Source: a virus (lineage: Duplodnaviria > Heunggongvirae > Uroviricota > Caudoviricetes). Taken from it: a stretch of DNA of 6,102 nucleotides. The notes under the pieces were generated by a model. It saw nothing but the letters and a program-made list of their open reading frames with translations, made no database searches and was not told the origin of the DNA. Positions 6,077 through 6,102 of the stretch are shown here, piece by piece; position 1 is the first letter of the stretch, and the number at the start of each line of letters is the position of its first letter. The position numbers and the translations under genes were made by a program. The stretch lies in the IMG/VR virus record IMGVR_UViG_2617270976_000019; one strand, written 5' to 3'.

Positions 6077-6102
6077 TTTTCATAAACGTTGGTTTGGGAG
6101 AA
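6077..6102 (-). other. hix/gix/cix-like invertase crossover site (26 bp, imperfect dyad around a central AA), cut by the window edge
   Basis: Minus-strand sequence TTCTCCCAAACC-AA-CGTTTATGAAAA matches the recalled hixL TTCTTGAAAACCAAGGTTTTTGATAA at about 20 of 26 positions, including the AAACC-AA-xGTTT core. It lies about 55 bp upstream of the invertase start, as gix, cix and pix sites do relative to gin, cin and pin. Confidence 0.55.

Follow-up and report, generated by a model that had tools for sequence, protein, structure and literature searches.

Tail-fibre switches of the Pin, Gin and Cin type have been textbook material since the 1980s. The closest described systems are the P segment of the e14 element of E. 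coli K-12 with its invertase Pin (pinE, stfE/tfaE, stfP/tfaP), the G segment of Mu with Gin, the C segment of P1 with Cin, and several P2-like invertible loci, namely those of EPEC E2348/69, LF82 ('Cartapus'), Salmonella Fels-2 (Fin) and the Klebsiella phage KP12. The locus described here lies at the very end of a stretch of 6,102 nucleotides, which as a whole is called the window hereafter. By its site, its enzyme, its layout and its cargo, it is a member of the Gin/Cin/Pin/Hin DNA-inversion family, with an e14 pix-type site placed in a P2/Fels-2-like backbone. Our results make it very probable that positions 6077-6102 are the invertase-proximal site of a tail-fibre switch with two sites, of the same type as Mu G, P1 C and e14 P, carried by a Fels-2/P2-like prophage at ssrA.

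The resemblance to e14 is the strongest at the level of the site, since the pinE-proximal site of K-12 is identical to that of the window at 26/26 positions. The two invertases are 85% identical, and the distance from site to start codon is 55 nt here versus 54 nt in e14. The partner site repeats the inner half-site, TT GGTTTGGGAGAA, and the cassette has the same layout (C-terminus + tfa / tfa' + C-terminus'). However, the window belongs to a P2/Fels-2-like myovirus prophage at ssrA, whereas e14 is a lambdoid element. The outer half-site of the partner also differs, being ttctcgcatacc in the relatives of the window and ctctcgaaaacc in e14, and the contents of the cassette vary between strains.

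The Mu locus shares with this one its gene order (Sc, Sv U U' Sv', site, then an invertase transcribed away from it), a conserved leader block, an invertase that is 74% identical and a site in which a 2-bp core separates two 12-bp half-sites. In the window, the invertase gene has its 5' end toward the site, with 68 nt between core and start codon versus 67 nt in Mu. In contrast, the site of the window differs from gixL/gixR at 9/26 positions, the G segment measures 3 kb versus roughly 1.5-1.9 kb in the relatives of the window, and the phage backbone is another one. Similarly, the P1 system has an invertase that is 77% identical, a site that differs at 7/26 positions (cixL/cixR) and an annotated enhancer within the first 90 nt of cin, of which 56/72 positions are identical here. 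In P1, unlike here, cin is read toward the segment and overlaps with cixL at its 3' end, and the C segment reaches 4.2 kb. Finally, the P2-like loci are of the same phage type, and their invertase, as here, has the tail-fibre/chaperone genes on one side and the sheath gene on the other. Identity with the window reaches 100% for the LF82 flank and 99.5% for the KP12 invertase. What distinguishes the window copy from them is a 1,839-bp deletion running from the sheath gene to gene E and a segment that falls outside the assembled contig.

The reference sites used for these comparisons (gixL/R, cixL/R and the e14 site) were taken from the annotated Mu, P1 and K-12 records. The end of the window, which reads ...GGGAGAAG, holds a complete 26-bp Pin-type crossover site at 6077-6102 (no strand assigned), TTTTCATAAACG TT GGTTTGGGAGAA, that is, the 26-mer TTTTCATAAACGTTGGTTTGGGAGAA. 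None of 200 dinucleotide-preserving shuffles contained a match to this 26-mer at three mismatches or fewer. As in gix and cix, its central 2 bp are flanked by 12-bp half-sites that form an imperfect inverted repeat, and the AAAC..GTTT core is kept despite the mismatches to the Mu and P1 sites. The outer half-site TTTTCATAAACG (6077-6088) remains fixed beside the invertase in both orientations of the pairs N17/N24, DAM/ANT and LF82/FDAARGOS_1372, and it differs from the outer half-site of the partner, ttctcgcatacc. The central TT dinucleotide (6089-6090), at the position equivalent to the crossover annotated for cix in the P1 record, is the probable strand-exchange point, as the exact reverse-complement interval between N17 and N24 starts there. 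The inner half-site GGTTTGGGAGAA (6091-6102) already belongs to the invertible DNA and, with the exception of WEC, reads identically in the two repeat arms of every cassette type examined. Positions 6077-6102 are a genuine crossover site of the Din family (Gin/Cin/Pin/Hin), and they form the left boundary of natural inversions in relatives. A preliminary description of this DNA had proposed a 26-bp hix/gix-like site upstream of the invertase, and the 26-mer is indeed found 55 nt upstream of the start codon at 6021. The same description held that the site is cut by the window boundary, which is incorrect: the site is complete, and only the longer identical repeat arm, which extends 15-26 nt from the core in relatives, is interrupted.

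The gene next to the site (5455-6021, minus strand) encodes an intact serine DNA invertase of 188 aa, identical to WP_000905033.1 of LF82. It displays the N-terminal catalytic Resolvase domain (Pfam, 2.3e-53) and a C-terminal HTH_7 domain (1.5e-15), retains the catalytic-serine motif YVRVSTNDQ and aligns end to end with the Gin crystal-structure sequences 3uj3/4m6f (E 8e-93). Near the 5' end of this gene, the interval 5932-6003 (minus strand) is homologous to nt 19-90 of P1 cin, where the P1 record annotates the enhancer, and identity also reaches 52/72 positions with Gin and 63/72 with PinE. Since this stretch is coding sequence, whose conservation alone is no proof of function, it is best described as a candidate Fis-dependent recombinational enhancer. 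The 55-nt leader between site and start codon (6022-6076, minus strand) contains a ribosome-binding site and, at 6060-6041, a conserved terminator-like hairpin that is followed on the minus strand by a T-run. Its alignment with e14 and Mu reveals a common block, tggcat.at...cttttA. A simple scan of the minus strand upstream of the invertase yielded no sigma-70-like promoter. The hairpin may curb transcription that runs on from the late tail-fibre operon to the invertase, or else belong to a weak invertase promoter.

What lies past the site can be read from relatives. Positions 5262-6102 of the window show 0 mismatches to LF82 and are 100% identical to many E. coli chromosomes. In these relatives, the DNA past the site consists, in order, of a silent tail-fibre C-terminal cassette with its assembly gene, a second assembly gene on the other strand, and the expressed C-terminus of H. 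The partner site, ttctcgcatacc TT GGTTTGGGAGAA, is inverted and sits inside the tail-fibre gene H at about codon 350, at a distance of 1.4-1.9 kb in the intact near-identical prophages. Among ten loci with identical or near-identical flanks, nine (LF82, FDAARGOS_1372, 95-3322, N17, N24, phage KP12, PCP06235, HCM-28C-2 and WEC) have one inverted partner site, located ~1-1.9 kb away and inside or next to the tail-fibre gene; the tenth, in strain E47, has none. The H proteins of the relatives share 358 identical residues and then diverge into alternative ends of 115 versus 113 residues that are ~28% identical, each with its own chaperone, and the two tfa products are identical at 47/141 positions. 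Alternative C-termini with their cognate chaperones are thus joined in relatives to a constant N-terminus that is encoded outside the segment. This bears out two expectations of the preliminary description: that the site borders a cassette of alternative tail-fibre C-termini and assembly genes, which holds in every intact near-identical prophage examined, and that a second inverted 26-bp site with tail-fibre/tfa ORFs would be found within a few kb, which in relatives is the case at nine of the ten loci. Its placement of the invertible segment immediately beyond 6102 stands as to the side on which the relatives carry the cassette, but the segment starts within the site itself.

Several of these loci deviate from the common arrangement. 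In E47, an identical flank and site are followed by ~100 nt of cassette, at which point IS26 interrupts it; the chromosomal genes gabP/gabT/gabD stand in place of the remaining prophage, and the intact invertase is left with an orphan crossover site. In WEC, the inner half-site has GGGAGAG in the two repeat arms alike, where the other cassettes have GGGAGAA, and the segment measures only ~1 kb, its tfa and H genes being truncated; a change shared by the two arms suggests replacement of the whole cassette or homogenisation. In HCM-28C-2, the partner site is found in a separate gp53-like ORF, followed by ~600 bp of unannotated DNA before a truncated tail-fibre gene, and this locus is another degraded or rearranged version of the switch. 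Besides, the same 1,533-bp cassette (tfa proteins WP_000639074 and WP_000782984) occurs both in P2-like prophages and in the e14-like element of DAM/ANT, whose other genes include pinE and baseplate genes of the Mu type. Phage backbones that are unrelated exchange this switch module.

Inversion at this site is directly visible between near-clonal genomes. N17 and N24, two cerebrospinal-fluid isolates from the same study, are identical over 16.7 kb but for one SNP and a perfect 1,533-bp inversion that starts at site position 13. Between DAM and ANT, the inversion is the sole difference. The same inversion separates LF82 from FDAARGOS_1372, which also differ by three isolated SNPs in 18.8 kb and by three mismatches within the inverted stretch. 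Each of these three pairs shows the segment in both orientations, and the breakpoints fall at the core. The largest exact reverse-complement interval starts with the central TT, at position 13 of the 26-mer. The exchange point hence lies somewhere from 6089 to where the shared arm stops, in agreement with cleavage at 6089-6090. In complete genomes, one orientation stands beside the invertase in at least 40 full-length matches and the other in at least 26. Sequencing and PCR have also shown that both orientations coexist in single cultures, namely for the e14 element of K-12 and for EPEC prophages of the P2-like type (PMC4272514).

These observations fit a mechanism of the Gin type. Invertase dimers would bind the window site and the inverted partner site inside the tail-fibre gene H, probably assisted by Fis bound to an enhancer within the 5' part of the gene that encodes them. 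By analogy with the Gin/Hin literature, 2-bp staggered cuts would be made at the central TT (6089-6090) and followed by strand rotation. The expected outcome is an inversion of roughly 1.5-1.9 kb, by which the final ~113-115 codons of H, together with the chaperone gene that follows them, would give way to the alternative pair.

For the source strain, the available assemblies stop at the site. All 6,102 bases of the window are identical to the end of draft contig JNQT01000047.1 (GCA_000704325.1, 33,097 bp). The edge of the window coincides with a real contig end, which falls within the feature described here, and DNA past 6102 is unreadable in the source genome because this contig ends one base after the site, at the equivalent of 6103. 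An independently assembled Logan contig, SRR1186598_318, ends at 6100, so that two independent assemblies stop no more than three bases apart inside the crossover-site region. The length over which the inner arms of the two sites are identical varies with the type of cassette. Counted from the core, it is 25-26 nt for the LF82/N17 cassettes (window-equivalent end 6113-6114), 17 nt for 95-3322 (6105), 16 nt for e14 of K-12 (6104) and 15 nt for KP12 and HCM-28C-2 (6103). The end of the NCBI contig at 6103 is therefore the exact limit of arm identity of the KP12/HCM-28C-2-type cassettes. A 15-nt inverted repeat cannot break an assembly by itself, but a graph assembler would be expected to halt at 6103 if the reads held both orientations of a KP12-type cassette. 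The Logan end is not one that mixed orientation predicts. As the last difference between a DAM-type pin locus and the window is at 6070, and the k-mer size of Logan is presumably 31, the presence of such a second locus, sharing its sequence from 6071 onwards, would make 6100 the final position of the last unique 31-mer. A second pin locus in the sequenced sample is thus hinted at because the Logan contig ends at 6100. Either reading of the contig ends implies that real DNA continues past them, and we infer that the source strain itself still holds the cassette and flips it.

The most serious alternative is that the 26-bp site is genuine but stands alone, the source strain having lost or disrupted its cassette and partner, so that nothing inverts and the contig ends because of a repeat elsewhere. 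The prophage is already defective through its 1,839-bp deletion, E47 provides a real example of an identical flank that passes after ~100 nt of cassette into IS26 and gab genes without a partner, and a DAM-type pin locus elsewhere would account for the Logan end as the last unique 31-mer. However, a downstream insertion sequence would have let the contig run past 6103 into unique cassette DNA, whereas both contigs stop inside the site. Moreover, the left flank is not repeated, as the NCBI contig is unbroken for 33 kb leftward, the stop at 6103 matches the limit of arm identity of common cassette types, and nine of the ten relatives examined have kept the partner. We therefore consider the loss of the cassette unlikely.

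It is more improbable still that the site is one of several in a shufflon-like system, comparable to Min of p15B, rather than half of a two-site switch. A three-repeat P2-like locus with four variants has been described in EPEC by Goldberg et al. (PMC4272514), and the extra gp53-like ORF and the gap before the H remnant in HCM-28C-2 could be seen as traces of such complexity, but all relatives scanned with this flank have exactly two sites per locus, with the exception of the single site of E47. The reading of the palindrome as an operator or a chance dyad with no role in recombination, for which the region upstream of a resolvase-type gene would be a plausible place for autoregulatory binding, can practically be dismissed, since the 26-mer exactly equals a known crossover site, the inversion breakpoints of near-clonal genomes fall at it, and the shuffles produced no chance match.

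The two-site tail-fibre switch is carried here by a damaged prophage. On the source contig, this P2/Fels-2-type prophage lies beside ssrA/smpB. Its tail module spans 27-5082 on the minus strand and, from Pfam matches and the LF82 annotation, includes Ogr (Ogr_Delta), gpD (314-1414; Phage_GPD), gpU (1411-1896; Phage_P2_GpU), the tape measure T (1893-4970; PhageMin_Tail) and, by the LF82 annotation, the region of the E' frameshift product. At higher coordinates, on the same strand, lies a fused remnant ORF of 71 aa (5097-5312) in which, by alignment with LF82, codons 1-17 of the sheath gene (FI) are joined in frame to the 3' part of the tail-assembly gene E; Phage_TAC_7 of Pfam covers only its C-terminal part. 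Relative to LF82, 1,839 bp are missing at the junction 5261/5262, which removes the sheath and tube genes. We considered an invertase-mediated origin of this deletion and rejected it, as the junction has a microhomology of ~1 nt and no AAAC..GTTT-like sequence. The junction is spanned by no record among the complete E. coli genomes searched, an exact 46-mer across it has no match in GTDB representative genomes, and the exact 71-aa ORF is on record in two contigs only (JNQT01000047.1 and the Logan contig), both of which end at the site.

Outside the deletion, the window differs from the LF82 prophage by 10 single-base differences in 5,261 bases (293-4931), and both are integrated at the same site beside ssrA. 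From this near-identity and shared site, it follows that the source prophage is a recent deletion derivative of a Cartapus-like phage. Cartapus, the only P2-related prophage of LF82, is reported to be Fels-2-like and spontaneously induced. The source prophage is unable by itself to build a contractile tail on which alternative fibres could act, its sheath being cut to 17 codons and its tube gene gone. As a result of these losses, flipping cannot alter the host range of its own virions without a helper. The host-range or phase variation put forward in the preliminary description must consequently be divided: the DNA does flip between near-clonal relatives, but no change in the host range of its own virions is to be expected from this copy. 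The switch can act like the G segment at the DNA level without any host-range variation arising from this prophage alone, and it is probably a still-active relic without effect on the virions of its carrier. It is tempting to speculate that a tail-less prophage has kept its invertase for an action in trans, on identical sites that lie elsewhere in its genome, or that the enzyme recombines sites of different prophages to yield large chromosomal inversions, but we regard this as doubtful. A possible target in trans could be an e14-like element, whose pinE-proximal site is the same and which can carry the very same cassette.

To conclude, the feature itself is already known and ordinary, and there is little new in it. 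Its practical consequences concern the reading of genomes, as the site explains why draft assemblies break at this point and as the product of the tail-fibre gene differs between otherwise identical genomes, a point to be borne in mind in annotation. Finally, a prophage that is itself defective but keeps an intact invertase can go on rearranging DNA, and other prophages with identical sites are possible targets.
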